Assembly: GCF_044324875.1 (NCBI RefSeq)
Contig: NZ_CP172187.1
Source: Escherichia coli
GTDB taxonomy: Bacteria; Pseudomonadota; Gammaproteobacteria; Enterobacterales; Enterobacteriaceae
Strand: one strand, 5' to 3'
DNA: 64,000 bases
A program made the translations under genes and the position numbers. Position 1 is the first letter of the stretch, and the number at the start of each line of letters is the position of its first letter. Positions 8,343 through 59,970 of this stretch are shown here, piece by piece. The notes beneath the pieces are model-generated. The model was not told the DNA's origin and did not search any database. It saw only the letters and a program-made list of their open reading frames with translations.

Positions 8343-8498
8343 GGCTTGTTATGACTGTTTTTTTGTACAGTCTATGCCTCGGGCATCCAAGCAGCAAGCG
8401 CGTTACGCCGTGGGTCGATGTTTGATGTTATGGAGCAGCAACGATGTTACGCAGCAGGGCAGTCGCCCTAAAACAAAGTTAACCTCTGAGGAAGAATT

Positions 8499-8972
8499 GT
8501 GAAACTATCACTAATGGTAGCTATATCGAAGAATGGAGTTATCGGGAATGGCCCTGATATTCCATGGAGTGCCAAAGGTGAACAGCTCCTGTTTAAAGCT
8601 ATTACCTATAACCAATGGCTGTTGGTTGGACGCAAGACTTTTGAATCAATGGGAGCATTACCCAACCGAAAGTATGCGGTCGTAACACGTTCAAGTTTTA
8701 CATCTGACAATGAGAACGTAGTGATCTTTCCATCAATTAAAGATGCTTTAACCAACCTAAAGAAAATAACGGATCATGTCATTGTTTCAGGTGGTGGGGA
8801 GATATACAAAAGCCTGATCGATCAAGTAGATACACTACATATATCTACAATAGACATCGAGCCGGAAGGTGATGTTTACTTTCCTGAAATCCCCAGCAAT
8901 TTTAGGCCAGTTTTTACCCAAGACTTCGCCTCTAACATAAATTATAGTTACCAAATCTGGCAAAAGGGTTAA
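8499..8972 (+). CDS. dfrA1: Trimethoprim-resistant dihydrofolate reductase cassette, DfrA1 type
   Basis: 157 aa matching DfrA1 as remembered ([42 protein letters not shown]...); first cassette after attI1. Confidence 0.85.
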
Positions 8973-38597: not shown

Positions 38598-38863
38598 CTA
38601 ATAACTGAATCCACACACAGTCAAATGTCATTATTGTGACTAAAAAACGCTCAATTCTCTGAGGGTGTGGCTGTATGCCTGCTGTGGACTGCTGTGTCCA
38701 GCTTATCCACAGCATTTTGCGCACGGTTCTGTGAATAAAATACCTGGTTACCCAGGCCGTGCCGGCACGTTAACCGGGCTGCATCCAATGCAAGTGTGTC
38801 GCTGTCGCCGGCATCCTCACCAGGTCACTCAGCAGTCAGGGAGAAAAATGGCGGATGAAGTAT

Positions 38864-39217
38864 GACGGAGACGGTCGGGCAAGTGCCCGTTTCTTTTCCG
38901 ACAAAGGATGTCGCCGTGCTCCTCTTTTTACTGCGCCGGCTGACGCGGCGCGGCATAAACGCTGCCTGTGGTCAGTGTCCCGCGTCCGGCGGGCACGGGA
39001 CGGGCGCTTTTACCGCTCCCGGCTGGCGTCGGTGACAGTGTACGCCAGCCCGTCGCCCTTTTCTGATGAACGCCCTTCAAGCCGCTTTCGCGGCATAGCC
39101 TTGCCGTCAAAAAGACGACGGCTGCGGTATTCCACGGTCGGCCTGACCCGTTACCGGACGCGGTGAACAGCCCACAGGCAGCGGGGAACGGGCACCACAG
39201 GGGGGCCCTCCCGGTGC
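38864..39217 (+). repeat. Leading-region GC-rich repeat, family A copy 1 (354 bp)
   Basis: Near-identical to 40169-40522; immediately upstream of a gene start. Confidence 0.75.
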
Positions 39218-39221
39218 TCCT

Positions 39222-40163
39222 GTGAGGAGAATTCCCATGCCAAACTGGTGCTCAAATCGTATGTATTTTTCTGGTGAACCAGCACAGATCGCTGAGATTA
39301 AACGACTGGCCAGCGGTGCAGTCACACCGCTTTATCGCCGCGCCACAGATGAAGGTATTCAGCTGTTTCTGGCCGGTAGTGCCGGACTTCTGCAGACCAC
39401 TGAAGATGTGCGGTTTGAACCATGCCCCGGACTGACGGCTGCCGGACGTGGTGTTGTATCGCCGGAGAATATCGCGTTCACCCGCTGGCTGACACACCTG
39501 CAGAACGGTGTGCTACTGGATGAAAAAAACTGCCTGATGCTGCATGAACTCTGGCTGCAGAGTGGTACTGGCCAGCGTCGCTGGGAAGGATTACCGGATG
39601 AGGTCAGGGAAAGCATCACCGTGCATTTCACCGCCAAAAGAGGTAACTGGTGTGGCTTCTGGAGTAACGAGGATGTATCGGTGTGGTGGAACCGTCTGTG
39701 TGACAATGTACTGCCGGAAAAAACCATGCCGTTTGACCTGCTGACGGTTCTGCCCACCCGCCTGGATGTTGAAGTGAATGGCTTTAACGGTGGTGTTCTG
39801 AACGGTGTTCCTTCTGCGTATCACTGGTATACGGAACAGTATGGCGTGAAGTGGCCTGTGGGGTATGAGGTGAATATCAGCAGTCAGGGAGACAACTTCA
39901 TTCAGGTTGATTTCGACACGCCGTGGTGTCAGCCGGAAAGCGACGTTATTGCAGAATTAAGCCGCCGTTTCAGTTGCACACTGGAGCACTGGTATGCCGA
40001 GCAGGGCTGCAATTTCTGTGGCTGGCAGCGATATGAGCGTGGAGAGCTTGTTGATGTCCTGTGGGGGGAATTGGAATGGTCTTCCCCGACAGATGACGAT
40101 GAGCTGCCGGAAGTCACCGGACCTGCGTGGATTGTCGACAAGGTGGCGCATTACGGTGGATGA
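39222..40163 (+). CDS. Hypothetical leading-region protein (313 aa, Trp/Cys-rich)
   Basis: Good RBS GAGGAG; sits between the two family A repeats. Confidence 0.5.
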   Translation: MRRIPMPNWCSNRMYFSGEPAQIAEIKRLASGAVTPLYRRATDEGIQLFLAGSAGLLQTTEDVRFEPCPGLTAAGRGVVSPENIAFTRWLTHLQNGVLLDEKNCLMLHELWLQSGTGQRRWEGLPDEVRESITVHFTAKRGNWCGFWSNEDVSVWWNRLCDNVLPEKTMPFDLLTVLPTRLDVEVNGFNGGVLNGVPSAYHWYTEQYGVKWPVGYEVNISSQGDNFIQVDFDTPWCQPESDVIAELSRRFSCTLEHWYAEQGCNFCGWQRYERGELVDVLWGELEWSSPTDDDELPEVTGPAWIVDKVAHYGG

Positions 40164-40168
40164 ATTCT

Positions 40169-40522
40169 GACGGAGACGGGCGGGCAACCGCCCGTTTCTT
40201 TTCCGACAAAGGATGTCGCCGTGCTCCTCTTTTTACTGCGCCGGCTGACGCGGCGCGGCATAAACGCTGCCTGTGGTCAGTGTCCCGCGTCCGGCGGGCA
40301 CGGGACGGGCGCTTTTACCGCTCCCGGCTGGCACCGGTGACAGTGTACGCCAGCCCGTCGCCCTTTTCTGATGAACGCCCTTCAAGCCGCTTTCGCGGCA
40401 TAGCCTTGCCGTCAAAAAGACGACGGCTGCGGTATTCCACGGTCGGCCTGACCCGTTACCGGACGCGGTGAACAGCCCACAGGCAGCGGGGAACGGGCAC
40501 CACAGGGGTGCCCTCCCGGTGC
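40169..40522 (+). repeat. Leading-region GC-rich repeat, family A copy 2 (354 bp)
   Basis: Near-identical to 38864-39217. Confidence 0.75.
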
Positions 40523-40546
40523 CTTCTGTAAGAGAAGGAGGCTTTT

Positions 40547-42487: not shown

Positions 42488-42903
42488 TGACACTGGCGGG
42501 GTAAATCCCCGCCTTTTTCCTGCCGGTCCCCGGACAGAGCACAAAGGAAGTCGCCGCCGGCTCCGCTTTACCCGGCCATGCGGGGCATGGCCTTGTGGAT
42601 TTTCAGTTATGTGGCCTCAGCGTCGTGTGCGGGCTGTGCCGTGCCTCCATCGTAGCCGGGCTTCTGCGGGCGGGTTGCAAGGTAAGGTGAACCGCTGCGG
42701 TCACCCGGTCCCTCCTTCCCGTCTGCCGTGATTTTCCGGTCGTTCACCCGCTCAGATTTCGCGGTCTCACCCTCCAACTCCCGCCAGCCGTGTGCGTCAG
42801 GCTGCGGCTTCCCTTGCGCCCTTGCAACCCTGCAGGCCCGGCAAAGATGGAGGCACGGCACCGCCCGGTGTCGCGGAATATGTGAACAACGGAGGAAAAC
42901 ATC

Positions 42904-43986: not shown

Positions 43987-44183
43987 TACAGGGGCAGGCG
44001 GTGGAGGCCGCCTGTCAGCCCGCGCGAAAACCCCTGGCAGGCTGACGCCTGCCGGAAGGGAAGCGGGCCACGCTGGCGCGTCGCCCGTTACCCTTCCCGT
44101 CTGTGATGTGTCTGACTCAGGAGTGTTTCTTTCTTATGTTGCGGAACTGTTCCTGATGTTGTTGTTGTTCCTTTATCTGCTGC

Positions 44184-44788
44184 TCTGATTCTGACTACTG
44201 CAGTGTTGTTCTGTCTGCCGGGCGCACCTTCGGCTCCCGGCTGCCTGGCGGCATCCGGTCGTCAGGCCCGACTCCGACAGGCAGCTGCTGGCGCACCTGC
44301 CAGTCTCCGCCGAACCCGCTGGCGCGGCTTCGGGCTGCCGCTACGGTCCGATGCGTGAAAACCCCGGGCTTGCAGCGACCGTTCTGGTCGCGCCGCCTCT
44401 GTCGCGCCGTGGCCTGCGCTCCAGGCATCCCGGCAAAAAGACGCCGGGATGTAAGGCGCAACGCCGTTTCGCAAACCGCGCTTCACGTCGTTGCTGCGGG
44501 TCCCTGCTCATTGCCTGCCGGGTGCCACACACCCGTATGAGTCCCTGTCGCCGGGGGCATAGACAGCCACAACCTGCCGCACTGACTGTCCAGGGTAAAT
44601 GAACAGCCCACAAAATTTTTTACCCAAAACCCGGTAAAAAATTTTGCGTTCTGCCCAGGACAGGTGCGTCAGGCCGTGGCAGTGATGCCCCTTGCGGCGA
44701 AGGTTCTCAAACGGGTGAAGTTCATACCACAGGGAATACAGCAGCAGGTTCCCGCGAAACGTCAAAACCGCGGCTCCCGAAACTCAAC
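44184..44788 (+). repeat. Leading-region GC-rich repeat, family B copy 1 (about 605 bp), candidate ssDNA promoter (Frpo-like)
   Basis: Near-identical copies at 47544-48147 and 55606-56210, each immediately upstream of a gene. Confidence 0.7.
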
Positions 44789-45027
44789 GGGTGATGTTCT
44801 TTAAAAATCAGGATTTATTTCAGGCTCCGGCAATACGCATTTATGTGTTCTGTCAGTCATCCGGCTGGCAGGTAATGAGAACGCAGGAACAGAAGGAGGA
44901 AAACACCGGAGAACGTCAGACGCAGATATGAAAAAAGCAGGCCGGGGAGGACCTGCTTAATCCACACCGCAAAAACTGTTCGAGCAGTTTCTGCGGTTCC
45001 ATTCAACAGTCATAAGGAGTTTCATTT

Positions 45028-45258
45028 ATGACGGTAAGTATTGTTTCACCTTCCGCAGCGGCTGTAAAGCCCCGCCGTCATCCCCGTTTCAGACGCGAAG
45101 ACATCCCCGCGCCGGAAATTGACCCCGTGCTGAAAGCCTTCGGGCGACACATAGCCCGGAGTTTTCACCGGGGGCGTGGTGTACACATCCCCGCCATGAA
45201 AAACACGGCCTTCGGGCAGGTGCTCCGCACACTCGAACTGAAACGCGCTTTTAACTGA
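45028..45258 (+). CDS. Hypothetical small protein
   Basis: 76 aa with strong AAGGAG RBS. Confidence 0.4.
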   Translation: MTVSIVSPSAAAVKPRRHPRFRREDIPAPEIDPVLKAFGRHIARSFHRGRGVHIPAMKNTAFGQVLRTLELKRAFN

Positions 45259-45309
45259 TGAGGTGAGCCGCCCCGCGAGGGGCGGCAACAGATGGAAGGA
45301 GAACATTTT

Positions 45310-46671
45310 ATGACATTAGCAGCAATCACCATGACCGCCCCGGAAGCCGCCAACCCTGTGCAGATGTACCGCGCGACCTACTCACCGGATGACAACAAAC
45401 TGCGCCTGTATGCCGCGTCACGTCTTGACCCGGAGACGTATAAAAAAGTGCATGATGCCGGTTTTCGCTGGGCACCCAAACAGGCGCTGTTTGTCGCGCC
45501 AGCCTGGACACCGGGCCGGGAAGACGTGCTCCTCTCACTTGCCGGAGAGATTGAGGATGAAGACAGCACGCTCGCTGAACGTCAGGAAGCACGGGCGGAG
45601 CGGTTTACCGGATACAGCGGAAAGCGGGCCAGTGAATCCGCACAGGCACTTGATGAAGTGGAAAGACTGGCCGCGATGATCCCGCCCGGTCAGCCCATTC
45701 TTGTGGGGCATCACAGCGAACGCCGCGCCCGTCGTGATGCGCAGCGTATTGAAAACGGCATGAAACGTGCCGTGATGCTCTTTGAGCGTGCGGAATACTG
45801 GGAGGAGCGGGCGCGGTCGGCACTGCTTCACGCGAAGTATAAAGAACGCCCGGACGTTCGCTGGCGTCGTATCAAAAAAATCGAAGCGGATTTGCGCAAG
45901 GCTGAAAAGACCATCGCGCAGTCGCAGAAATATCTGACGATGTGGCGGGCTGAATCGCTGGATCTGAATATGGCAAAACTCATCAGCAGTCATGACCATA
46001 TCAGCGCCTGTTTCCCGCTGGACAGGTATCCGCGCCCGGCAGAAAAAAGCCAGTATGAAGGAAGTCGATCGTTATGGTCGGCCCTGGATGATGACATCAT
46101 CACCACGGAGCAGGCCCGCGAAATTGCGATCCGCTGTCATGAACGGCAGATTCAGCATCAACAACGCTGGGTTAACCACTATCATAACCGCCTGATCTAT
46201 GAGCGTGCCATGCTGGACGAAAGCGGCGGCGTGGTTACCCGGACACAGGATTTTGAGCCGGGCGGACAGGTTTTCAGCCGGGGCGAGTGGCTGACCATCA
46301 TCCGCGTGAACAAAAGCAACGGGGCGGTGAGTTCAGTCACAACGCCGAATTACAGTTTTCTCGGGTACAGCGGCACGATGAAAGTGACACCCGATCGCAT
46401 CACGGACTACAAAGCACCATCGGCAGAAGAGGCTGCCGTCGCCAGTCAGGCCGCGAAGCGTCCGCCGGTAGTCAACTATCCGGGGGAAGGTTTCCGGGAA
46501 ATGACAAAGGCGCAGTGGGCCGCCCTGCCCCGGGACTGTAAGGCCGTGCGCAGTGTGGCAGAGACAGAAGACCACGGGGCATACCGCTACCGCCGCACAA
46601 TGGACAATAATTTCCGCCTGGTGAATGTGTATATCACTGACATGAAAATCACGGAAATCCCACAGAAATAA
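45310..46671 (+). CDS. Hypothetical leading-region protein (453 aa, possibly DUF3560-like)
   Basis: Long ORF with AGGAG RBS before MTLAAITMTAPEA; family assignment from memory only. Confidence 0.5.
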   Translation: MTLAAITMTAPEAANPVQMYRATYSPDDNKLRLYAASRLDPETYKKVHDAGFRWAPKQALFVAPAWTPGREDVLLSLAGEIEDEDSTLAERQEARAERFTGYSGKRASESAQALDEVERLAAMIPPGQPILVGHHSERRARRDAQRIENGMKRAVMLFERAEYWEERARSALLHAKYKERPDVRWRRIKKIEADLRKAEKTIAQSQKYLTMWRAESLDLNMAKLISSHDHISACFPLDRYPRPAEKSQYEGSRSLWSALDDDIITTEQAREIAIRCHERQIQHQQRWVNHYHNRLIYERAMLDESGGVVTRTQDFEPGGQVFSRGEWLTIIRVNKSNGAVSSVTTPNYSFLGYSGTMKVTPDRITDYKAPSAEEAAVASQAAKRPPVVNYPGEGFREMTKAQWAALPRDCKAVRSVAETEDHGAYRYRRTMDNNFRLVNVYITDMKITEIPQK

Positions 46672-46717
46672 GGTATATCCCCCCGGGAAATCCCCGGGGG
46701 ATGACGGAGATAATGAC

Positions 46718-47281
46718 ATGCACAGTCAGTTAAGAGAACGTATCCGGCTGATGCGCGCAAGGCTGGATAACGCCGCGCCGGTTGCTGAAATCCGGGCTGA
46801 ATCTCAGCTTTTTGTGACTCCTGCCCCGGTCTGTGATCGCCTGGTGACGCTGGCGGAAATCAGCAACCGTGATCACATTCTGGAACCCTCTGCCGGCACC
46901 GGGGCCATACTGCTGGCGATTCGGGATACCGCGCCGGAGGCCATGTGTGATGCGGTGGAGATTAACAGCGGGCTGGTCCGGTATCTGCGGGAAAATTTTA
47001 ACGGTGTCAGGGTACAGTGTGGCGACTTCATGGAATGGCAGCCGGTGCAGTATTACAGCCGGATCATTATGAATCCGCCGTTCAGTCACGGGCAGGATAT
47101 CCGGCATATCCTGCGGGCTTTTTCCCTGTTGCGTCCGGGGGGCGTTCTGGTTGCCGTCTGTCTCAACGGGCCGCGCCAGCAGGAGAAGCTGTTACCGTTT
47201 TCTGACGTCCGCGAGGAGCTGCCGCGCGGCACGTTTGCTTATACCGATGTCCCGACGATGATTATTCGTTTGCGTGCCTGA
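46718..47281 (+). CDS. Small SAM-dependent methyltransferase (NPPF motif), putative orphan DNA methylase
   Basis: 187 aa; ILEPSAGTGAILLAI AdoMet motif and IIMNPPFS catalytic motif. Confidence 0.65.
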   Translation: MHSQLRERIRLMRARLDNAAPVAEIRAESQLFVTPAPVCDRLVTLAEISNRDHILEPSAGTGAILLAIRDTAPEAMCDAVEINSGLVRYLRENFNGVRVQCGDFMEWQPVQYYSRIIMNPPFSHGQDIRHILRAFSLLRPGGVLVAVCLNGPRQQEKLLPFSDVREELPRGTFAYTDVPTMIIRLRA

Positions 47282-47460
47282 TGACACAGGGCTGGCGGGA
47301 GGATAAATGCCCGTCTGTCCGCGCCGGGAAAAGACCGCGCGCCGGTGGCGCTGAAAGGGGCCGCGCTCACGCGCCGCCCCTTTCATTACGCGGACGTTCT
47401 GATGGGGGCTTCTGTCTTTTCAGACCTGTCATTTGTCTGTTACTGATGATGTTGTTGTTC

Positions 47461-47526
47461 CTGCTACTGCTACTGCTACTGCTACTGCTACTGCTACTGC
47501 TACTGCTACTGCTACTGCTACTGCTC
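47461..47526. repeat. Hexanucleotide tandem repeat (CTGCTA)x11
   Basis: Perfect 66-bp array; absent from the corresponding position in the other two family B copies. Confidence 0.85.
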
Positions 47527-47543
47527 TTCTTTTTCCTGCTGCT

Positions 47544-48147
47544 CTGATTCTGACTACTGCAGTGTTGTTCTGTCTGCCGGGCGCACCTTCGGCTCCCGGC
47601 TGCCTGGCGGCATCCGGTCGTCAGGCCCGACTCCGACAGGCAGCTGCTGGCGCACCTGCCAGTCTCCGCCGAACCCGCTGGCGCGGTTTCGGGCTGCCGC
47701 TACGGTCCGATGCGTGAAAACCCGGCTTGCAGCGACCGTTCCGGTCGCGCCGCCCCTGTCGCGCCGTGACCTGCGCTCCAGGCATCCCGGCAAAAAGACG
47801 CCGGGATGTAAGGCGCAACGCCGTTTCGCAAACCGCGCTTCACGTCGTTGCGGCGGGTCCCTGCCCGTTGTTGTGTCCGGTGCCATTCACCTGTTTAAGC
47901 CCCTGTCGCCGGGGGCTGATACAGCCACAACCTGCCGCACTGACTGTCCAGGGTAAATGAACAGCCCACAAAATTTTTTACCCAAAACCCGGTAAAAAAT
48001 TTTGCGTTCTGCCCAGGACAGGTGCGTCAGGCCGTGGCAGTGATGCCCCATGCGGCGAAGGTTCTCAAACAGGTGATGGTGAATACCGGAGGGAACAAAG
48101 AGCAGGTCCCCGCAAAACGTCAAAACCGCGGCTCCCGAAACTCAACA
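47544..48147 (+). repeat. Leading-region GC-rich repeat, family B copy 2, immediately upstream of ssb
   Basis: Near-identical to 44184-44788 and 55606-56210. Confidence 0.7.
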
Positions 48148-48187
48148 GATGATGGGGGCTGAAAACATCAACAGAAGGAGACACATC

Positions 48188-51100
48188 ATGGCAGTTCGTG
48201 GCATTAACAAGGTCATTCTTGTCGGTGTGCGCCGTTGAAGCGCGGTGTTTTATGGAGTGTTGCCTGAAAAGCAACATGGCTTAGTGGTATAGCCATTGCA
48301 TACTGTGGTTAGCCTTGCTTGGTAACAGGCTCGGAGATCCTGAAAAGGAGAGGTGAACATAGCATCCACAGAAAAGGGTGGTGAATATGGAAATCGTTAT
48401 AAGTATCACCATTCAATGCAAGATGTATATGGATAAACTGGGTTTGTTGAAGTCGAGATCTATGTGGGAAACAGGAAACCAATAACGCAGAACGATTGAA
48501 GCGTTATTCCCGTACTAGCACAAGAAATCCGTCCGACGTTGATTGTGACCACTCTAACGGGCCAGCTATTGATGAAATAGTTAAACGATCGAAAGACATC
48601 CTAAGTACATCGCATCTCCACACCGTGAAACTACGGGACTACCTAAACTGGATTTATACCCAGCATGGTAGCGGAGTCTCCATAGTACTCAAGGTCGGCC
48701 TGTAATGGGTTCCGGCAGTCCGCATTATACGGAAGCAGCAAAGGTATAAATCAACCGGAAGGAAGATGAAAGCCTCACAGTGCTGCGGGGAAGGGAGACA
48801 GTTGTTAGATACATCAATCTCTAAGAGGAGGGTTAGCCAATGCTGCCTGATGAACTTGAGAAAAGATTAGATGGAATTGAGGATGCTTCAAAAAAAGGGT
48901 ATCCAGTACGTAATCTATACAAAATTGCGTGTGAGCCCGGACTGTGGCTGCAAGCCTACGTGAATATACGGGCCAATGCAGGTGCACTGACTCAAGGTGT
49001 ATCAACAGATACCATTGATGGCTTTTCTATCGAAAGAGCAGAGAAGCTGGCAAAAACATTGCGGAGTAGAGAATACGTAGCGAAACCTGTACGCAGAGTT
49101 CAGATCCCAAAAAAGGACGGAAAAACCAGACCGCTGGGGATTCCAGGTGGAGACGATAAACTGGCGCAAGAAGTAGCAAGAATTATTCTGGAAAGGGTTT
49201 ATGAACCAGTATTCTCTGAACACTCTCATGGATTCAGACCAAAACGTTCGTGTGAAACTGCGCTCAGATCTATTCGTCCAGTCTGGAACGGAGTTAAATG
49301 GATCGTGGATGTTGATATCAAAGGTTTCTTTGACAATATCCCCCACAAACTATTGCTGAATACACTGGCAGAGAAAATTAAGGATAAGAATTTCCTGAAA
49401 TTAATCGAACAGTGGCTGAAGGCAGGATATGTGGACAATTGGAAATACCATCGCTCATATTCTGGCACGCCACAAGGTGGGATAATTTCTCCCTTACTGG
49501 CAAATATATACCTCGACAAACTGGACCGTTTTGTAGAACAGAATTTAATTCCTGCATATACAAGCGGTACAAAACGAAGAGCGAATCCAGATATGAACAG
49601 GCTGGCCCATAAGATTCATAAACTACGAAAGAAAGTAGACGGTATGGCAACTGATTCTGAATCAGAAAAAGAAGCCATAAAGAAAGAAATTGAACGACTG
49701 CTTGAAGAAAAACGTTCTATACCATCTCAGGTCATGAACGATCCAAACTTCAGGCGTATGTACTATGTTCGATATGCTGATGACTTCGTAATCGGTGTCA
49801 TCGGCTCGAAGAAAGATGCTGAACATATATCAAGACAGGTCAGAAACTTTATTACTACTTCACTGGGATTGGAAGTTAATGAAGCAAAGACCAGGATCCG
49901 CCATATCTCAGAAGGAGTTAATTTTTTAGGCTATGAAATCAGACAGGCAGATGCAAAGAAATTGCTGAAGCAGAAAATGCAAGGGCGGCACGCTCTCCGG
50001 AGATCCACCACAGGAATTGTGCAGCTCTTCGTTCCTGACAATATAGCCGCTAAATTTTGTCACCAAAAGAAATATGGCTGTTATGAGAATGTGAAGGCTG
50101 TACATCGTTCAAGTCTACAAAATCTCAGTGAAGCTGAAATTGTTCTGACTTTCAACGCGGAAATGCGCGGATTGGCGAACTACTACAGTCTGGCGCTGGA
50201 CATGAAATATAAATTATCAAAATTATATTTCATATGGCAAATAAGCCTTTTTAAGACCCTGGCGAATAAACGACGTAGTTCAGTGAATAAAGTCGCCAAA
50301 TCGCTACGGCAAAATAATGGAGATCTGGCTATTACCGTTCAGGCCAAAAATGGATCCCGAAAGATTGAGGTTTTCAAACTCAAACATGTCAATCGCAACC
50401 GAACAACGATTGTCGATACGGAACCGAGAACCGCACATATCACAACCCGCACAACAGAGATCATGCGTCGATTAGGGGCAAGGATCTGCGAGTATTGTGC
50501 GAAGACTGGGCGCTGCGAAGTACATCATGTCAGAAAGCTAAAAGACCTGAAGAAAGGTCGTAAGGCCGGATATAAACCCAGCTTGTGGCAACTAATGATG
50601 ATCGCACGCCGCCGGAAAACGATGATTTTGTGCGCAAGTTGCCACGACAAGTTACATAGCGGAAAACTACCCGATTTGAGACAGGAAAAGGGAAGAATAC
50701 TCCTGCAACCACCTGTCTCAAGCGGGGATTCTGCTAAATGAGTTTATCCCCAATAAGCTAGCAATGGAGAGCCGTATGCACTGAAAGGTGCACGTACGGT
50801 TCGGAGGGGGGGTAACGGTGATCTAACTCAAGATAAGCAGGACATATTCGCCATTTATCTTGAAAGACCACACGTACCCTACCCTACCGTCTGGGAAAAG
50901 ATCCGGAAGTCCGTTACATCCCAAACGGGGGCGCAGTGGCAAACCTGCAGGTGGCCACGTCAGAAAGCTGGCGCGACAAACAGACGGGGGAGATACGGGA
51001 GCAGACAGAATGGCATCGCGTGGTGCTGTTCGGCAAGCTCGCGGAAGTGGCTGGTGAGTATCTGCGCAAGGGCGCGCAGGTCTACATCGAAGGTCAGCTT

Positions 51101-51376
51101 CGCACCCGTAGCTGGGAGGATAACGGTATCACCCGTTACGTCACCGAAATTCTTGTTAAGACCACGGGCACCATGCAGATGCTGGGACGTGCCGCAGGTA
51201 CTCAGACTCAGCCGGAAGAGGCGCAACAGTTCAGCGGTCAGCCTCAGCCGGAATCACAGCCGGAACCGAAAAAAGGAGGCGCGAAAACGAAAGGCCGTGG
51301 ACGTAAGGCCGCGCAGCCGGAGCCTCAGCAGCCGTCTGAACCCGCGTATGACTTCGATGACGACATTCCGTTCTAA
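48188..51376 (+). CDS. ssb: Plasmid single-stranded DNA-binding protein Ssb, interrupted by a group II intron (exon 1 48188-48226, exon 2 50888-51376)
   Basis: Exon 1 [13 protein letters not shown]; exon 2 [35 protein letters not shown]...DDDIPF; joined frame gives a 175 aa SSB. Confidence 0.8.
48227..50887 (+). mobile_element. Group II intron (about 2.66 kb) inserted in ssb
   Basis: Starts GTGCG; domain V-like GAGCCGTATGCACTGAAAGGTGCACGTACGGTTC at ~50768; encodes RT/maturase/HNH protein in domain IV. Confidence 0.8.
48840..50741 (+). CDS. Group II intron-encoded protein: reverse transcriptase, maturase and HNH endonuclease domains
   Basis: 633 aa; RT motifs incl. [13 protein letters not shown]-terminal HNH/Zn motif [17 protein letters not shown]...CASCHDKLH. 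Confidence 0.85.
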   Translation: MLPDELEKRLDGIEDASKKGYPVRNLYKIACEPGLWLQAYVNIRANAGALTQGVSTDTIDGFSIERAEKLAKTLRSREYVAKPVRRVQIPKKDGKTRPLGIPGGDDKLAQEVARIILERVYEPVFSEHSHGFRPKRSCETALRSIRPVWNGVKWIVDVDIKGFFDNIPHKLLLNTLAEKIKDKNFLKLIEQWLKAGYVDNWKYHRSYSGTPQGGIISPLLANIYLDKLDRFVEQNLIPAYTSGTKRRANPDMNRLAHKIHKLRKKVDGMATDSESEKEAIKKEIERLLEEKRSIPSQVMNDPNFRRMYYVRYADDFVIGVIGSKKDAEHISRQVRNFITTSLGLEVNEAKTRIRHISEGVNFLGYEIRQADAKKLLKQKMQGRHALRRSTTGIVQLFVPDNIAAKFCHQKKYGCYENVKAVHRSSLQNLSEAEIVLTFNAEMRGLANYYSLALDMKYKLSKLYFIWQISLFKTLANKRRSSVNKVAKSLRQNNGDLAITVQAKNGSRKIEVFKLKHVNRNRTTIVDTEPRTAHITTRTTEIMRRLGARICEYCAKTGRCEVHHVRKLKDLKKGRKAGYKPSLWQLMMIARRRKTMILCASCHDKLHSGKLPDLRQEKGRILLQPPVSSGDSAK

Positions 51377-51389
51377 CGAAAGACAGTGA

Positions 51390-51665
<276 letters not shown>

Positions 51666-51728
51666 GAGAGGTGCCGGACGGGAACGCGTCCGGCAGACAT
51701 ACAACCATCCCGGTCAAAGGAGAAATAT

Positions 51729-53686
51729 ATGTCAGTTACAGAGTCTAAGACAAAAACGGAGCGTAAATCCAGCCGTAAACCTGCAAAAACGCAGGAAACT
51801 GCACTGTCTGCCCTGCTGGCGCAGACGGAGGAAGTGAGCGTGCCGCTGGATTCACTGATTAAATCACCGCTGAATGTGCGCACGGTGCCGTATTCTGCGG
51901 AGTCCGTCAGTGAACTGGCTGATTCCATTAAGGGAGTCGGCCTGCTGCAGAATCTGGTTGTTCATGCCCTGCCAGGTGACCGTTACGGTGTCGCCGCAGG
52001 TGGTCGCCGACTGGCAGCACTCAACATGCTGGCAGAGCGTGACATCATTCAGGCTGACTGGCCTGTCCGCGTGAAAATTATTCCGCAGGAGCTGGCGACG
52101 GCTGCATCGATGACCGAGAACGGTCATCGTCGGGATATGCACCCTGCCGAACAGATTGCCGGATTCCGCGCAATGGCGCAGGAAGGCAAAACACCTGCGC
52201 AAATCGGTGATTTGCTGGGCTATTCACCCCGCCATGTCCAGCGAATGCTGAAACTGGCTGACCTTGCGCCTGTCATCCTCGATGCGCTGGCAGAAGACCG
52301 CATCACCACCGAACACTGTCAGGCGCTGGCGCTGGAGAACGACACCGCGCGTCAGGTGCAGGTGTTTGAAGCCGCTGCCAGTCAGGATGGGGTGGAAAAC
52401 CGGATGTGCGGGTTATCCGCAACCTGATTACGGAAAGTGAAGTGGCGGTGAAGGACAACACTAAATTTCGCTTTGTGGGGGCTGATGCTTTCTCGCCTGA
52501 CGAACTGCGCACCGATTTGTTCAGCGATGACGGGGACGGTTATGTCGACCGCGTGGCGCTCGATGCCGCCCTGCTGGAAAAACTCCAGGTTGTTGCAGAG
52601 TCCCTTCGGGAAGCAGAAGGCTGGGAATGGTGCGCCGGGCGCATGGAGCCAGTCGGTGAGTGCCGTGAGGATGCCGGAACATACCGCTGTCTGCCGGAGC
52701 CGGAAGCGGTGCTGACGGAGGCGGAAGAAGAACGCCTGAACGAACTGATGACGCGTTACGACGCGCTGGAAAACCAGTGTGAGGAATCCGACCTGCTGGA
52801 AGCAGAAATGAAGCTGATGCGCTGCATGGCGAAGGTCAGAGCGTGGACGCCGGAGATACGTGCCGGAAGCGGTGTGGTGGTGTCCTGGCGTTATGGCAAC
52901 GTATGTGTCCAGCGTGGTGTGCAGTTGCGCAGTGAAGATGACGCGACTGACGACGCTGACCGCACGGAACAGGTGCAGGAGAAAGCGTCAGTGGAGGAAA
53001 TCAGTCTGCCACTGCTGACGAAAATGTCTTCCGAACGCACGCTGGCAGTCCAGGCGGCACTGATGCAGCAACCGGACAAATCCCTGACACTGCTGGCATG
53101 GACGCTCTGCCTGAATGTGTTTGGCAGCGGAGCGTACAGTAAACCAGCACAAATCAGCCTGGAATGTAAACATTATTCGCTGACCAGCGATGCGCCGTCA
53201 GGGAAGGAAGGTGCCGCATTCATGGCGCTGATGGCAGAAAAAGCCCGTCTTGCGGCCCTGTTACCGGAGGGATGGTCACGGGACATGACGACATTCCTTT
53301 CACTCAGTCAGGAGGTGCTGTTATCCCTGCTCAGTTTCTGCACCGCGTGCAGCATCCACGGCGTTCAGACCCGCGAGTGTGGTCACACGTCACGCAGCCC
53401 GCTGGACACGCTGGAGAGCGCCATCGGTTTTCACATGCGCGACTGGTGGCAGCCGACAAAAGCAAACTTCTTCGGACACCTGAAAAAGCCGCAGATTATC
53501 GCAGCCCTGAATGAGGCAGGACTGTCCGGTGCCGCACGGGACGCGGAGAAGATGAAGAAAGGCGATGCGGCTGAACATGCAGAGTTCCATATGAAAGACA
53601 ACCGCTGGGTGCCTGGCTGGATGTGTGCACCACGTCCACAGACGGATACCACTGAACGCACTGATAACCTGGCTGATGCCGCCTGA
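51729..53686 (+). pseudogene. ParB-like nuclease domain protein gene, split by a +1 frameshift near 52400
   Basis: ORFs 51729-52427 and 52406-53686 overlap in different frames; first part has ParB/Srx-like N-domain; combined length about 650 aa. Confidence 0.6.
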
Positions 53687-53737
53687 TGAACAACCACACC
53701 GCCCCGCCGGAGACGGGGCGGCAGCAAGGGAGATACC

Positions 53738-54175
53738 GTGATGAAAACTGAACTGACCCTGAATGTCCTGCAGACCATGAACGCACAGGAATATGAAGAT
53801 ATCCGTGCTGCGGGAAGCGATATGCGCCGTAATCTCACTCACGAGGTGATGCGTAAAGTGGACGCACCGGCTAACTGGATGATGAATGGCGAGTATGGCA
53901 GTGAGTTCGGGGGCTTTTTCCCCGTCCAGGTTCGTTTCACGCCAGCCCACGAACGTTTTCACCTGGCGTTATGTTCACCGGGCGATGTCTCTCAGGTCTG
54001 GGTGCTGGTTCTGGTGAATGCCGGTGGTGAGCCGTTTGCGGTGGTTCAGGTGCAGCGGCGGTTTGCACCGGAAGCTGTCAGCCATTCACTGGCACTGGCG
54101 GCGTCACTGGATGCGCAGGGGTACAGCGTTAACGACATCATTCATATCCTGATGGCGGAAGGAGGTCAGGCATGA
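53738..54175 (+). CDS. psiB: Plasmid SOS inhibition protein PsiB
   Basis: [38 protein letters not shown]... Confidence 0.9.
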
Positions 54176-54891
54176 GCGCACGTTCACAGGCACTGGTTCC
54201 TCTCAGCACAGAGCAACAGGCCGCATGGCGGGCGGTGGCGGAGACCGAAAAACGCCGCCATCAGGGTAACACGCTGGCTGAATATCCGTATGCGGGTGCG
54301 TTTTTCCGCTGTCTGAACGGAAGCCGCAGGATATCGCTGTCTGACCTGCGATTTTTCATGCCGTCCCTGACCGCAGAAGAACTGCACGGCAACCGTCTTC
54401 AGTGGCTGTATGCCATCGATGTGCTGATTGAAACACAGGGCGAGGTCTGCCTCCTTCCCCTTCCCGGTGATGCAGCAGAGCGCTTGTTCCCGTCGGTGCG
54501 GTTTCGTGTCAGGGAACGCAGTCGCCATAAATCCGCGCTGGTCATGCAGAAGTACAGCCGCCAGCAGGCGAGGGAGGCAGAGCAGAAAGCCCGTGCGTAC
54601 CAGGCGCTGGTCGCTCAGGCTGAAATCGAACTGGCATTCCATTCGCCGGAAACAGTCGGAAGCTGGCATGCACGCTGGAGTGACCGGGTGGCAGAGCATG
54701 ACCTGGAAACCCTGTTCTGGCAGTGGGGCGAGCGTTTTCCGTCACTGGCCGGAATGGAACGCTGGCAGTGGCAGGATATGCCGTTCTGGCAGGTTATTGC
54801 GGAAGCCAGTCTTGCAGCAAGAGAGGCCGGTCACGCTGTCCGTGAGATGGAGCGGTGGATGGTGCCGAACAAACTCCGGGAGGCAGCGTGA
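54172..54891 (+). CDS. psiA: Plasmid SOS inhibition protein PsiA
   Basis: 239 aa, overlaps psiB stop. Confidence 0.85.
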
Positions 54892-55112
54892 TGCGGCAAC
54901 AATCACACGGATTTCCCGTGAACGGTCTGAATGAGCGGATTATTTTCAGGGAAAGTGAGTGTGGTCAGCGTGCAGGTATATGGGCTATGATGTGCCCGGC
55001 GCTTGAGGCTTTCTGCCTCATGACGTGAAGGTGGTTTGTTGCCGTGTTGTGTGGCAGAAAGAAGATAGCCCCGTAGTAAGTTAATTTTCATTAACCACCA
55101 CGAGGCATCCCT

Positions 55113-55325
55113 ATGTCTAGTCCACATCAGGATAGCCTCTTACCGCGCTTTGCGCAAGGAGAAGAAGGCCATGAAACTACCACGAAGTTCCCTTGTCTGG
55201 TGTGTGTTGATCGTGTGTCTCACACTGTTGATATTCACTTATCTGACACGAAAATCGCTGTGCGAGATTCGTTACAGAGACGGACACAGGGAGGTGGCGG
55301 CTTTCATGGCTTACGAATCCGGTAA
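55113..55325 (+). CDS. mok: Mok/FlmC-like overlapping reading frame of the hok/sok-type locus
   Basis: 70 aa ORF overlapping hok in another frame. Confidence 0.5.
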
Positions 55326-55329
55326 GTAG
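55171..55329 (+). CDS. hok: Hok/FlmA type I toxin (52 aa); antisense Sok-like RNA expected just upstream on the opposite strand
   Basis: [52 protein letters not shown]; below the 60-aa ORF track cutoff. Confidence 0.8.
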
Positions 55330-55605
55330 CAACCTGGAGGCGGGCGCAGGCCCGCCTTTTCAGGACTGATGCTGGTCTGACTACTGAAGCGCCTTTATAA
55401 AGGGGCTGCTGGTTCGCCGGTAGCCCCTTTCTCCTTGCTGATGTTGTACGGGCATGAACAACCTGACTTCAGGAAGGTCGTTTCCCTTCAGGAACGGGGA
55501 TGAACGCGCGCCTGCGGCGCCCGTTCTTTTCCCCCGCCTTCTCTGGTTATGGCCTGTCAGAAATCACATCACCTTCCCTGTGATTATTCTCTTTTTCTTC
55601 CTGCT

Positions 55606-56210
55606 CTGATTCTGACTACTGCAGTGTTGTCCTGTCTGCCGGCGCACCTTCGGCTCCCGGCTGCCTGGCGGCATCCGGTCGTCAGGCCCGACTCCGACAG
55701 GCAGCTGCTGGCGCACCTGCCAGTCTCCGCCGAACCCGCTGGCGCGGTTTCGGGCTGTCGCTACGGTCCGATGCGTGAAAACCCCGGGCTTGCAGCGACC
55801 GTTCCGGTCGCGCCGCCTCTGTCGCGCCGTGGCCTGCGCTCCTGGCATCCCGGCAAAAAGACGCCGGGATGTAAGGCGCAACGCCGTTTCGCAAACCGCG
55901 CTTCACGTCGTTGCTGCGGGTCCCTGCCCGTTGTTGTGTCCGGTGCCATTCACCTGTTTAAGCCCCTGTCGCCGGGGGCTGATACAGCCACAACCTGCCG
56001 CACTGACTGTCCAGGGTAAATGAACAGCCCACAAAATTTTTTACCCAAAACCCGGTAAAAAATTTTGCGTTCTGCCCAGGACAGGTGCGTCAGGCCGTGG
56101 CAGTGATGCCCCATGCGGCGAAGGTTCTCAAACAGGTGATGGTGAATACCGGAGGGAACAAAGAGCAGGTCCCCGCAAAACGTCAAAACCGCGGCTCCCG
56201 AAACTCAACA
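55606..56210 (+). repeat. Leading-region GC-rich repeat, family B copy 3
   Basis: Near-identical to copies 1 and 2. Confidence 0.7.
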
Positions 56211-56249
56211 GATGATGGGGGCTGAAAACCAGAGAGAGGAGAAAGCTGG

Positions 56250-56537
56250 ATGAGTACCCGAAATATCCACGTTAACACCGCGTCGTACACGATTCTTGTT
56301 GCCGGGAGGGAAAAAAACACCGGGGAAGAGTGGGACGTCCTGGAATTCAGCAGCCTGACTGAGCTGAAAAAATATCGCAAAAGCCACCCGGAAAAGATGG
56401 CCTTCAGCTATAGCTACGCGCTCAGCCGGGGTGTGGATACGCAGTTCCGCCATATCAACATTGCGGAAGCCGATCACTTCAAACAGTTCCTGCGTCAGAT
56501 TAAGCGTGCCGGCCTCGATATCCGGGCGATCTGCTGA
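56250..56537 (+). CDS. Leading-region protein (F orf95-like, 95 aa)
   Basis: 95 aa ORF directly downstream of repeat copy 3. Confidence 0.5.
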   Translation: MSTRNIHVNTASYTILVAGREKNTGEEWDVLEFSSLTELKKYRKSHPEKMAFSYSYALSRGVDTQFRHINIAEADHFKQFLRQIKRAGLDIRAIC

Positions 56538-56655
56538 CCGGATGTGATGAATATCCCTCCTGATTGTTGCAATCTTGTTAATGGAGATCGGGAGAGATGA
56601 TATTAAGCGGAAAAATTTTTTATTAAATTTATTCTTTCATAAAGGAGTAGCTGTT

Positions 56656-57477
56656 ATGCGATTAGCTTCCCGTTTTGGTCGGTATAATTCCATCCGTCGT
56701 GAACGTCCTTTAACGGATGATGAATTAATGCAGTTCGTGCCTTCGGTATTTTCCGGTGATAAACATGAGTCCCGGAGTGAACGTTATACGTATATTCCAA
56801 CAATCAATATCATCAATAAGTTACGTGATGAAGGTTTCCAGCCATTCTTTGCCTGTCAGAGTCGGGTTCGTGATTTGGGACGCCGCGAATACAGTAAACA
56901 TATGTTACGTCTTCGCAGGGAAGGGCATATTAACGGGCAGGAAGTTCCTGAAATTATCCTGCTTAATTCACATGATGGTTCATCCAGTTATCAGATGATC
57001 CCCGGAATTTTTCGTTTTGTCTGCACAAATGGCCTGGTGTGCGGAAATAATTTTGGCGAAATCCGTGTTCCACATAAAGGTGATATTGTCGGGCAGGTTA
57101 TCGAGGGAGCGTATGAAGTGCTCGGTGTCTTTGATAAGGTCACTGATAATATGGAGGCGATGAAAGAAATTCATCTTAACAGTGACGAGCAACATTTATT
57201 TGGCAGAGCTGCACTGATGGTCAGGTATGAAGATGAAAATAAAACGCCAGTGACACCTGAACAGATAATTACTCCCCGTCGTCGGGAAGATAAACAGAAC
57301 GATCTCTGGACAACCTGGCAGCGGGTTCAGGAGAATATGATAAAAGGTGGATTATCGGGGCGAAGTGCCTCCGGGAAAAATACCAGGACAAGAGCCATTA
57401 CAGGTATTGATGGTGATATAAGAATCAACAAGGCGTTATGGGTGATTGCCGAACAGTTCAGAAAGTGGAAGTCATGA
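56656..57477 (+). CDS. Leading-region protein (F orf273-like, DUF932-type)
   Basis: 273 aa from MRLASRFGRYNSIRRERPLTDDELMQF... Confidence 0.55.
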   Translation: MRLASRFGRYNSIRRERPLTDDELMQFVPSVFSGDKHESRSERYTYIPTINIINKLRDEGFQPFFACQSRVRDLGRREYSKHMLRLRREGHINGQEVPEIILLNSHDGSSSYQMIPGIFRFVCTNGLVCGNNFGEIRVPHKGDIVGQVIEGAYEVLGVFDKVTDNMEAMKEIHLNSDEQHLFGRAALMVRYEDENKTPVTPEQIITPRRREDKQNDLWTTWQRVQENMIKGGLSGRSASGKNTRTRAITGIDGDIRINKALWVIAEQFRKWKS

Positions 57478-58339: not shown

Positions 58340-58700
58340 TCAACAGGTTGGTGGTTCTCACCACCAAAAGCACCACACACTACGCAAAAACAAGTTTTTG
58401 CTGATTTGCCACTTGAATCATTAACTTATGTTTTAAATAATGTATTTTAATTTATTTTACATTATAAAAAGGATTCATTGGTGAATCGCATATGATTCAC
58501 CAATGAATTTAACACAACTCATAGATGAATCAGTAATAATAAAACAACGAGTTAAAGCGAATTGACTCTAGATTCAATTCGTGATGTGATTTGCTGCATG
58601 AATCGTAATTTTCGTAACTTGCGTCACGATTCGATTCATCGATGAATTGTCATTTTTTTATATGTGAAATAAATTTGATGCGATAAGAAAATAAAGAGGT
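58340..58700. other. oriT: Origin of transfer oriT (nick region near 58360-58370 on the minus strand, plus TraM/TraY/IHF binding region)
   Basis: Reverse complement contains TTTTTGCGTAGTGTGTGGTGCTTTTGGTGGTGAGAACCACCAAC, the F/R100-type nick region. Confidence 0.65.
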
Positions 58701-59090: not shown

Positions 59091-59283
59091 AAAAGAATTA
59101 AAAGTTGATTTGCTTCAAATAACAGGATTTTGATCTGGTTCAATTTGATGACAATTAACCGCATAAAGGTTATATTAATTACGTGGTTAATGCCACGTTA
59201 AAAATTGAAACTGAAAATCGCCGATGCAGGGAGTTCAGACCTCCCTGCATCGACTGTCCATAGAATCCTTAACGGAGGTTCCT

Positions 59284-59970
59284 ATGTGTGCGCTGGATCG
59301 TAGAGAAAGGCCACTTAACAGTCAATCTGTAAATAAATACATCCTTAACGTTCAGAATATCTACAGAAATTCTCCCGTTCCGGTTTGTGTCCGTAACAAA
59401 AACCGGAAAATCCTTTATGCCAATGGGGCTTTTATTGAACTCTTTTCCAGAGAAGATAAACCCTTATCCGGAGAGAGTTATATACGTCTGCAGGTTGAAA
59501 TTTTTCTTTCATCACTTGAACTGGAATGCCAGGCTCTTGGACATGGCTCTGCATTTTGTCGTCGTTTTAATTTTCATGGCGAAATCTATCAGATAAGGAT
59601 GGAGAATGTTTCTTTTTATAATGACGAATCTGTTGTTTTATGGCAAATTAATCCGTTTCCTGATTATCCATTTTTTGCGTTAAATCAGAGTGGAAGTAAT
59701 ACAAATACTTCTGATAAATTAACGATATGGAATGATCTTTCTCCAGGGACATTGGTTGTTTTCTCTTTTTATATGCTGGGTGTTGGTCACGCAACAATTG
59801 CCAGAGAGTTGGGTATTACAGACAGAGCATCTGAGGATCGAATTAAACCAGTTAAACGGAAAATAAAAGAATTTTTTGAACACTTTGATTTATTCAGAGT
59901 GTCATGTATCTATAAAGGAGAAATAGATTCGCTATTAAGTATAATTCGTGAATTTTATAGTATTAAGTAA
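59284..59970 (+). CDS. traJ: Transfer operon activator TraJ (track ORF starts at 59224)
   Basis: Position between traM and traY; AT-rich codon usage typical of traJ. Confidence 0.7.

Follow-up and report, generated by a model that had tools for sequence, protein, structure and literature searches.

What are the three long, GC-rich repeats that recur in front of genes in a 64,000-nucleotide stretch of an Escherichia coli contig (NZ_CP172187.1; the whole stretch analysed is called the window), and do they work as promoters on the single DNA strand that enters a recipient cell, as a first-pass annotation had proposed by comparison with the Frpo elements of the F plasmid?

Three repeat units in an IncF leading region

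The window represents the leading region of an IncF plasmid and contains an oriT nick region (Table 1) with traM and traJ/FinP just to its right, and since the nick falls on the minus strand, this is the transferred strand, with entry running from high to low coordinates. Measured from the nick, the three copies are at 2.2, 10.2 and 13.6 kb, and the genes downstream of all of them are on the plus strand and thus templated by the transferred strand.

Self-BLAST of the window, the pairwise alignment that had been suggested as a check, returned three direct repeats with 93.4-98.3% identity. The units are ~630-640 bp long, extending ~12-20 bp further at each end than the 605 bp first described. 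Their near-identity holds for B and C (47528-48166 / 55590-56229, 98.3% over 641 nt) but not for A, which aligns to C at 93.4% (44165-44796 / 55584-56217, 636 nt) and to B at 93.6% (44171-44796 / 47529-48154, 629 nt) and diverges from both in two blocks. The copies are mutually offset by 1- and 2-nt indels. They are indeed GC-rich, if modestly so (61% versus 54.5% in the leading region), and each precedes the gene named in the first-pass annotation: 221 nt separate copy A from the ATG of the 45028 ORF, 22 nt copy B from that of ssb (48188), and 21 nt copy C from that of the orf95-like gene (56250). Downstream of ssb follow a DUF905 gene, a ParB-like gene, psiB and psiA, and the interval separating B from C includes hok/sok. 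We found no convincing intrinsic terminator in the left half of the repeats that could act as an operon boundary.

In public records the repeat is annotated with one to four hypothetical proteins, and ORFs of 50-156 aa are present on both of its strands; that the repeats code for protein or are gene remnants is nevertheless barely credible. The ORFs look spurious, as had been claimed, because their lengths and end points vary from copy to copy, indels separate the copies, and none of the ten ORFs tested matches an NCBIfam family. In addition, the substitutions compensate each other between paired arms and are not codon-like. A pyrimidine tract with (CTGCTA)n was considered as a genuine poly-Leu protein tail and rejected, since the translations of the three upstream ORFs are Arg/Gly/Pro-rich junk followed by Leu/Phe runs, with no family match.

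Table 1. Positions of the repeats, their parts and the neighbouring features in the window.
Feature	Position	Strand	Remark
Repeat copy A, whole ~636-bp unit	44172..44807	-	93-94% identity to B and C
Repeat copy B, whole ~641-bp unit	47530..48170	-	
Repeat copy C, whole ~638-bp unit	55592..56229	-	98.3% identity to B
Frpo-type hairpin A	44466..44783	-	ssiD match 44785-44452, 80.3%; fold -100.4 kcal/mol
Hairpin B	47822..48141	-	F Frpo2/ssp1b equivalent, upstream of ssb; fold -101 kcal/mol
Hairpin C	55885..56204	-	F Frpo1/ssp1a equivalent, upstream of orf95/ygeA; fold -101.8 kcal/mol
GC-rich accessory segment A, modules 1-2	44190..44465	-	short-hairpin cluster 3' of Frpo on the transferred strand
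Accessory segment equivalents	47548-47821 (B), 55610-55884 (C)	-	
Candidate promoter motif, copy A	44682-44710	-	TTGAGA-N17-CATCAC
Candidate promoter, 5' arm of hairpin B	48040..48068	-	TTGAGA 48063-48068, 17 nt, CATCAC 48040-45
Candidate promoter motif, copy C	56103-56131	-	TTGAGA-N17-CATCAC
Operon after copy A	45028..47547	+	cassette missing in F
76-aa ORF	45028-45258	+	first in copy A operon
DUF3560 protein	45292-46671	+	copy A operon
Class I SAM methyltransferase	46718-47281	+	copy A operon
88-aa ORF, doubtful	within 45028..47547	+	copy A operon
ssb	48188..51376	+	first gene after copy B; split by group II intron
ssb exons	48188-48226 and 50888-51376	+	basis includes annotation of a near-identical plasmid
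Group II intron in ssb	48227-50887		
Operon after copy C	56250..57477	+	
orf95/ygeA-like gene	56250-56537	+	copy C operon
DUF932/ygeB-like gene	56575-57477	+	copy C operon
Class 2 / class 3 candidates	42540-42903; 38850-39231 / 40155-40536		
oriT nick region, GTAGTGTGT|GGTGCTTTT	58366..58383	-	nick near 58374

A conserved hairpin on the transferred strand

The comparison with F, on which the proposed identification had been made to depend, came out in its favour. The F ssiD/Frpo sequence (D90178, taken from supplement 4 of Samuel et al., 2024) aligns by BLASTN to all three copies on the minus strand over 335-351 nt, with 80-87% identity and E-values of 1e-80 to 1e-120 (copy B, 48158-47809, 87.0%; copy C, 56221-55872, 86.8%; copy A in Table 1). 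The match is confined to the right-hand ~320 nt of each repeat, so that the label Frpo-type applies to the right-hand half of the units and not to the left.

The same ~320 nt make up the long imperfect palindrome that had been noticed in each copy. On the transferred strand it is predicted to fold into a single long imperfect stem-loop of 122-123 pairs with -100 to -102 kcal/mol, a greater predicted stability than that of F Frpo1 (-89) or F Frpo2 (-84 kcal/mol), both of which have been validated by experiment. The whole 627-nt unit folds with z = -12.5 relative to shuffles. When the transferred strand was folded in sliding 300-nt windows between 38000 and 58400, the hairpins (-93.6 to -98.5) were among the deepest minima of a background with mean -49 and sd 14.5. 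No Rfam family covers the repeats at gathering and E-value thresholds.

Compensatory changes support the transferred-strand hairpin. Among 15 units, 51 pairs have changed on both sides, versus 30.4 +/- 3.5 after shuffling (a value reached in 0 of 500 shuffles) and 19-30 in slid controls; in a second set of 20 broader homologues, metagenomic ones included, the count was 34 versus 21.9 +/- 2.4 (again 0/500), with 14-19 pairs in slid controls. On the transferred strand the hairpin is also the more stable one, exceeding the complement by 8-20 kcal/mol in 15 of 15 homologues, while background windows show +2.8 +/- 4.8 in the opposite sense and only 1.4% of them reach -8.

This asymmetry bears on whether the structure acts as RNA, that is, as a long structured 5' leader for translation or stability instead of as single-stranded DNA. 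A start placed in the left arm would leave most of the palindrome in the mRNA, where it could refold. Yet 4-11 G-T pairs of the transferred strand become C-A mismatches in the plus-sense RNA, which together with the weaker complement suggests that selection acts on the minus strand of the DNA. We therefore regard a role as RNA as highly improbable.

Candidate promoter elements in the stem

The first-pass annotation had also made its reading depend on a stable single-stranded hairpin with promoter-like elements. The hairpin and a -35-like TTGAGA are present, but the -10 element is weak and a scan of the repeat for the strict sigma-70 consensus gave no -35/-10 pair on either strand. In a relaxed scan, TTGAGA-N17-CATCAC was the best combination on the transferred strand (8/12 matches). 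TTGAG and the CCTTCGCCGC spacer are invariant across 20 homologues, and the candidate -10, CATCAC, which lacks the final T, is located in a mismatch bubble (internal loop) of the stem. The old ssiD entry reads CATACT at this place, versus CATCAC(T) in the window and in the current F sequence. The Frpo2 fragment of Samuel et al. begins inside the left arm and does not include the partner of TTGAGA, and thus either a duplex -35 is dispensable or the true boxes lie elsewhere. We infer the exact hexamers and the start site of the three copies from sequence; the predicted plus-strand starts, which pair with sites ~7 nt past CATCAC, fall near 47924 (copy B), 55987 (copy C) and about 44568 (copy A).

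A GC-rich accessory segment

The left ~275 bp of the units are a GC-rich, mosaic and dispensable accessory segment, which appears to be swapped as a module between copies and plasmids. One may ask whether the whole 635-bp unit is nonetheless one functional element, to which this segment contributes additional hairpins on the transferred strand that could insulate Frpo against read-through or against the complementary strand as it advances, or could load a primosome. The segment has a stronger fold than its shuffles (z = -5.2 for transferred-strand DNA and -3.1 for plus-strand RNA), the transferred strand is favoured over the complement by 3-14 kcal/mol in 15/15 units (background +2.8 +/- 4.8), F and this plasmid agree at 92-100% in module 2, and ColIb-P9 has another hairpin at the same place, after CCTTA; Rfam holds no matching family. 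Module 1, however, exists as two unrelated alleles (40% identity), and the 351-nt ssiD and the shorter Frpo2 fragment are active without the segment. It is also missing in ~20 of 34 metagenomic Frpo homologues retrieved with a hairpin-anchored pattern, and the strand bias of the flanks of these is inconsistent (-9.6 to +6.3). These homologues come from a metagenome scan with a 17-mer in which most of the 120 loci were chance matches, ~34 true homologues remaining after an nhmmer filter. Covariation is uninformative here because the main hairpins of the segment (helices 13 and 16) hardly vary, and the invariance of module 2 in alignment A3 is partly built in, its 10 loci having been fetched with a module-2 pattern. 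A search for distant relatives in PLSDB with the left half of the repeat was saturated by close relatives and of no use for diversity. On balance, a single functional unit seems unlikely to us, and slightly less likely still is a separate, undescribed transferred-strand structure, be it an insulator or barrier against read-through polymerases or a primosome loading site.

Recombination and relation to known elements

The lower stem of hairpin A carries an allele, alpha, that differs from B and C by joint changes in both arms. The copies have a mosaic structure, and the allele pattern makes F Frpo2 an A-left/B-right chimera, which apparently arose by recombination of an A-type with a B-type copy and would as such be direct evidence for recombination between copies. 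This bears out the suggestion that the repeats serve as substrates for homologous recombination, by which the gain or loss of a cassette between F and this plasmid can be explained.

The closest relatives of the hairpins are F Frpo1 (ssiD, ssp1a) and Frpo2 (ssp1b), which share the ~320-nt hairpin at 80-87% identity, an identical TTGAGA-N17-CATCAC stretch, the position upstream of orf95/ygeA and ssb in the same orientation to oriT, and a repeat unit of ~600 bp whose left half is GC-rich. Unlike F, this plasmid carries copy A as a third unit, with a 3.36-kb cassette of its own. The upper hairpins of all three copies are of the Frpo2 type and 100% identical, whereas the top of F Frpo1 differs (67%); the left-most ~150 bp (module 1) belong to an allele unrelated to that of F; and in F Frpo2 an alpha arm faces a mismatched beta arm in the lower stem, with a fold that is weaker by 17 kcal/mol.

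The IncI1 class 1 elements ssi1-3 of ColIb-P9/pESBL likewise comprise three leading-region copies of the same long-hairpin class, each of which precedes an early operon (ardA, psiB, ssb), and recombination between them has been documented (PMC3817090; PMC12672017). Their stems are far more diverged and the main hairpin is shorter (sequences compared without formal alignment), and the small hairpin after CCTTA is a different one. In IncF and IncI plasmids, each copy of Frpo is accompanied by the GC-rich left ~275 bp.

Class 2 (ssp2/'Frpo3') and class 3 (ssp3) elements, candidates for which occur in the window (Table 1), likewise form hairpins on the transferred strand ahead of leading-region operons, but share no sequence similarity with the three repeats. 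Moreover, ssp2 is a roadblock to complementary-strand synthesis, a property not reported for class 1. A strong fold at 38925 was considered as part of an IS110 element and rejected, because this fold duplicates the hairpin that lies upstream of the methylase.

Promoters or priming sites

We conclude, with a probability of about 0.9, that each repeat bears a class 1 single-stranded-DNA promoter (Frpo/ssi/ssp1) of the IncF leading region; by analogy with F Frpo1 and Frpo2, we infer that the three copies behave as promoters. In the proposed mechanism, the minus strand would enter the recipient with its 5' end first, starting from the nick, and the ~320-nt inverted repeat of each copy would form its hairpin before complementary-strand synthesis. 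The stem would mimic duplex promoter DNA, with the -35-like and weak -10 hexamers on the 5' arm, and host sigma-70 RNA polymerase could then use the 3' arm as template and continue around the loop into the co-oriented genes. Copy C would thereby drive orf95 and the DUF932 gene, copy B ssb and the four genes behind it up to psiA, and copy A the extra cassette with the 76-aa ORF, the DUF3560 gene and the methyltransferase. The same transcripts may prime complementary-strand synthesis, and conversion to duplex DNA would abolish the hairpin and switch the promoters off. For F, early expression in vivo requires Frpo1 and Frpo2 (PMC9849209); 5' RACE supports class 1 promoters, and single-stranded transcription in the recipient has also been demonstrated for IncI1 ssi1-3 (both PMC12672017). 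In vivo evidence on F ssp1a and ssp1b further shows that conversion is primed by Frpo transcripts (bioRxiv 10.64898/2026.01.09.698686).

The most serious competing view is that the repeats are mainly ssi sites that prime the complementary strand, gene expression being a by-product. The priming signal ssiD was the form in which Frpo was originally isolated; early conversion downstream of both ssp1a and ssp1b is sensitive to rifampicin in vivo, as reported by Fraikin et al.; and the hairpins recur every 3-8 kb within the first 14 kb to enter. Against a purely secondary role of expression, each copy lies directly upstream of a co-oriented operon that has no other promoter there, a scan for strict sigma-70 sites on the plus strand having found none within 300 bp upstream of 45028, 48188 and 56250. 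Priming as the main function is thus possible but doubtful, and it does not exclude the promoter function, because the transcript is the primer.

The single-stranded promoter reading is real but ordinary: class 1 (Frpo/ssp1) promoters have already been described in thousands of plasmids, with 13,089 Frpo homologues in 6,006 elements (PMC11541004), and our analysis adds nothing fundamentally new for the field. Its value for the window lies mainly in annotation, as it establishes which strand is transferred, splits the leading region into operons and marks the hypothetical proteins within the repeats as spurious. Within minutes of entry, Frpo elements switch on the genes for SOS inhibition, SSB, anti-restriction and other establishment functions, and this early expression, which precedes the double-stranded state, is a recognised determinant of the spread of conjugative resistance plasmids.

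Three probable class 1 promoters in the leading region

The window carries three direct repeats (copies A, B and C), on which repeat finding, MAFFT and self-BLAST agree. By self-BLAST, copies B and C are 98.3% identical over 641 nt (47528-48166 vs 55590-56229), while copy A is 93.4% identical to C over 636 nt (44165-44796 vs 55584-56217) and 93.6% identical to B over 629 nt (44171-44796 vs 47529-48154). These lengths give a unit of ~635 bp, so that of the three near-identical 605 bp repeats described in the first-pass annotation the number stands, but the units are a little longer at both ends and near-identity applies to B and C only. Their GC content is 61% (vs 54.5% for the leading region around them), and more than 5000 PLSDB plasmids contain the repeat, at ~2.9 places per record. 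The ORFs inside the repeats had been called spurious, in agreement with lengths and end points that vary among the copies, the indels of 1 and 2 nt that distinguish these, and the absence of NCBIfam matches (0/10 ORFs). Each copy is preceded by a pyrimidine-rich tract, with plus-strand contents of ~40-46% for T and 11-12% for A (44147-44215 before A, 55570-55640 before C); the tract before B encloses a perfect (CTGCTA) x 10.8 microsatellite (47461-47525). In F the matching position holds a CTT/CCT-rich tract. ORFs crossing these tracts look spurious.

All three copies match the F ssiD/Frpo reference (D90178, taken from supplement 4 of Samuel et al., 2024). The F plasmid has two ~600-bp repeats, before ssb (Frpo2) and before orf95/ygeA (Frpo1), whose alignment with the window copies begins near mid-unit. 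By homology, position and structure, copies A, B and C are class 1 single-stranded-DNA promoters, and the earlier Frpo-type interpretation is supported. Copy C corresponds to Frpo1 (ssp1a) and copy B to Frpo2 (ssp1b), whereas copy A is an extra copy whose cassette (a 76-aa ORF, a DUF3560 protein and a SAM methyltransferase) is absent from F. The element itself is already known: in the leading regions of IncF and IncI plasmids it is textbook-level and has been well studied in recent years.

Among plasmids, the best match is conjugative (IncF/MOBF) and carries the usual leading-region genes. Since the R100-type nick sequence lies on the minus strand, this is the transferred strand, entering from high to low coordinates. 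The nick is ~2.2 kb away from copy C, ~10.2 kb from B and ~13.6 kb from A. The leading genes are all on the plus strand, and the transferred strand is therefore their template.

Features of the leading region and of the three repeats (window positions unless stated)
Feature	Position	Strand	Remark
Repeat copy A	44172-44807		
Repeat copy B	47530-48170		
Repeat copy C	55592-56229		
ssiD match, copy A	44785-44452	minus	80.3% identity
ssiD match, copy B	48158-47809	minus	87.0% identity
ssiD match, copy C	56221-55872	minus	86.8% identity
~320-nt imperfect hairpin, copy A	44466-44783	transferred	fold
~320-nt imperfect hairpin, copy B	47822-48141	transferred	fold
~320-nt imperfect hairpin, copy C	55885-56204	transferred	fold
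TTGAGA-N17-CATCAC, copy A	44710-44682	transferred	
TTGAGA-N17-CATCAC, copy B	48068-48040	transferred	
TTGAGA-N17-CATCAC, copy C	56131-56103	transferred	
sok	54997-55173		Rfam
R100-type nick sequence GTAGTGTGT/GGTGCTTTT	58366-58383	minus	slash, nick
traJ 5' UTR/FinP	59181-59290		Rfam
F Frpo2 chimera	L002 (F plasmid) 8175-8626 vs window 44359-48166		A-type left arm, B-type right arm

Hairpins on the transferred strand

The hairpins of copies A-C (-100 to -102 kcal/mol, DNA parameters) are more stable than those of the validated F Frpo1 (-89) and Frpo2 (-84 kcal/mol), and the whole unit folds with z = -12.5 vs shuffles. With the criterion of Wen et al. (2025), a sliding fold of the transferred strand (300-nt windows, 38000-58400) gave some of its deepest minima at the three repeats (-93.6 to -98.5 vs a mean of -49, sd 14.5). 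The hairpin is also supported by covariation, seen in each of two samples: 51 pairs changed on both sides among 15 units from F, Klebsiella, Citrobacter and Lelliottia (shuffles 30.4 +/- 3.5, 0/500 reaching 51; slid controls 19-30), and 34 among 20 broader homologues, metagenomic ones included (shuffles 21.9 +/- 2.4, 0/500; slid controls 14-19). The transferred-strand hairpin is 8-20 kcal/mol more stable than its complement in 15/15 homologues, owing to G-T pairs; in background 320-nt windows of the leading region the complement is favoured by 2.8 +/- 4.8, and -8 is reached in only 1.4%. This asymmetry argues for selection on the minus DNA strand and not on mRNA.

Elsewhere in the leading region the transferred strand forms further strong hairpins. 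That at 42540-42903, before a klcA/ardB-like gene (42904), resembles the class 2/ssp2 type (Samuel et al. Frpo' 4), and a second is a 383-bp direct repeat (96.6%; 38850-39231 and 40155-40536) of the candidate class 3 hairpin preceding a DNA methylase (40547). An unusually strong fold (52075-52374, -75 kcal/mol) also lies inside the ParB-like gene (51729-53686), which is in two frames with a switch near 52376-52379 (frameshift, pseudogene or sequencing error); its F homologue is intact (652 aa).

Within each unit Frpo is confined to the right ~350 bp, the left ~275 bp being a GC-rich cluster of short hairpins. As transferred-strand DNA this segment folds with z = -5.2 and has the same strand bias as the hairpin in 15/15 units. 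Module 2, the proximal part, shares 92-100% identity with F, whereas the distal ~150 bp (module 1) occur as two unrelated alleles, window type and F type (40% identity). A second homologue sample, anchored on the hairpin instead, lacks the segment in ~20/34 Frpo homologues, whose flanks are without consistent strand bias; the left segment is therefore an accessory, lineage-specific module, and a distinct role for it seems unlikely.

A probable recombinant Frpo2 in F

The upper hairpins of the three copies are 100% identical. In the lower stem, copy A has one allele (alpha) and copies B and C another (beta), and the two arms differ in step, which keeps each hairpin paired. F Frpo2 has in its left arm the A variant at 13 consecutive A/B-differing sites, and from 47917 onward the B variant at more than 40, placing the crossover between 47900 and 47917 (copy B coordinates). 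Exactly one repeat period (3358 bp, 44788 to 47717) is absent from F. F Frpo2 is best read as an A-type copy that recombined with a B-type one. The product (-83.6 kcal/mol) folds 17 kcal/mol more weakly than either parent type because its arms are mismatched. Since the arms match in both A and B, we infer a deletion in F rather than an insertion in the window plasmid. A similar event was described in IncI plasmids (PMC3817090), and Couturier et al. pointed out that hok/sok between Frpo1 and Frpo2 should protect against such deletions (PMC9849209). Here, sok lies between copies B and C, with nothing comparable between A and B.

Candidate promoter elements and gene expression

A strict scan gave no sigma-70 site in the repeat on either strand; the best transferred-strand pair in a relaxed scan is TTGAGA-N17-CATCAC (8/12 matches). 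TTGAG and the following CCTTCGCCGC do not vary in 20 homologues. At the -10 position, which lies in an internal loop of the stem, F-like copies have CATCAC, most diverged homologues (G)TAAAC and the old ssiD entry CATACT. We infer that TTGAGA and CATCAC are the promoter hexamers, and the start site is assigned on the same footing.

For the mechanism we rely on published work. RNA polymerase binds single-stranded Frpo, and the resulting RNA also primes DNA synthesis (Masai and Arai, 1997, as summarised in PMC9849209); start sites of class 1 promoters (Frpo, ssi1-3) were mapped by 5' RACE (PMC12672017), and in vivo it is the transcripts from these promoters that prime conversion. The promoter on the 5' arm of copies A-C would be directed at the loop with the 3' arm as template, and RNA polymerase would round the loop and exit toward the gene, giving plus-sense mRNA.

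After copy A, the minus strand carries an AS-pc01 antisense RNA (Rfam, 89.7 bits; 44932-45033), for which there is a separate sigma-70-like promoter (45068-45040, including TG) as well as a terminator (44958-44935). Both the start of the 76-aa ORF and its ribosome-binding site are overlapped by this RNA, an arrangement suggestive of antisense control over the cassette's first gene. After copy B, a complete group II intron of 2661 bp (48227-50887; start GTGCG, end CTAC; RT/maturase ORF 48840-50741; Rfam domain V/VI 50767-50887) follows codon 13 of ssb (48188-51376); once the exons are joined, they encode an intact SSB of 175 aa. In PLSDB, 514 plasmids contain this intron, at least 311 with the same ssb junction. 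Given its location immediately after Frpo copy B, the intron is expected to be transcribed from single-stranded DNA when the plasmid enters. A strict scan found no plus-strand promoter within 300 bp upstream of 45028, 48188 and 56250, which fits a dependence of gene expression on the hairpins.
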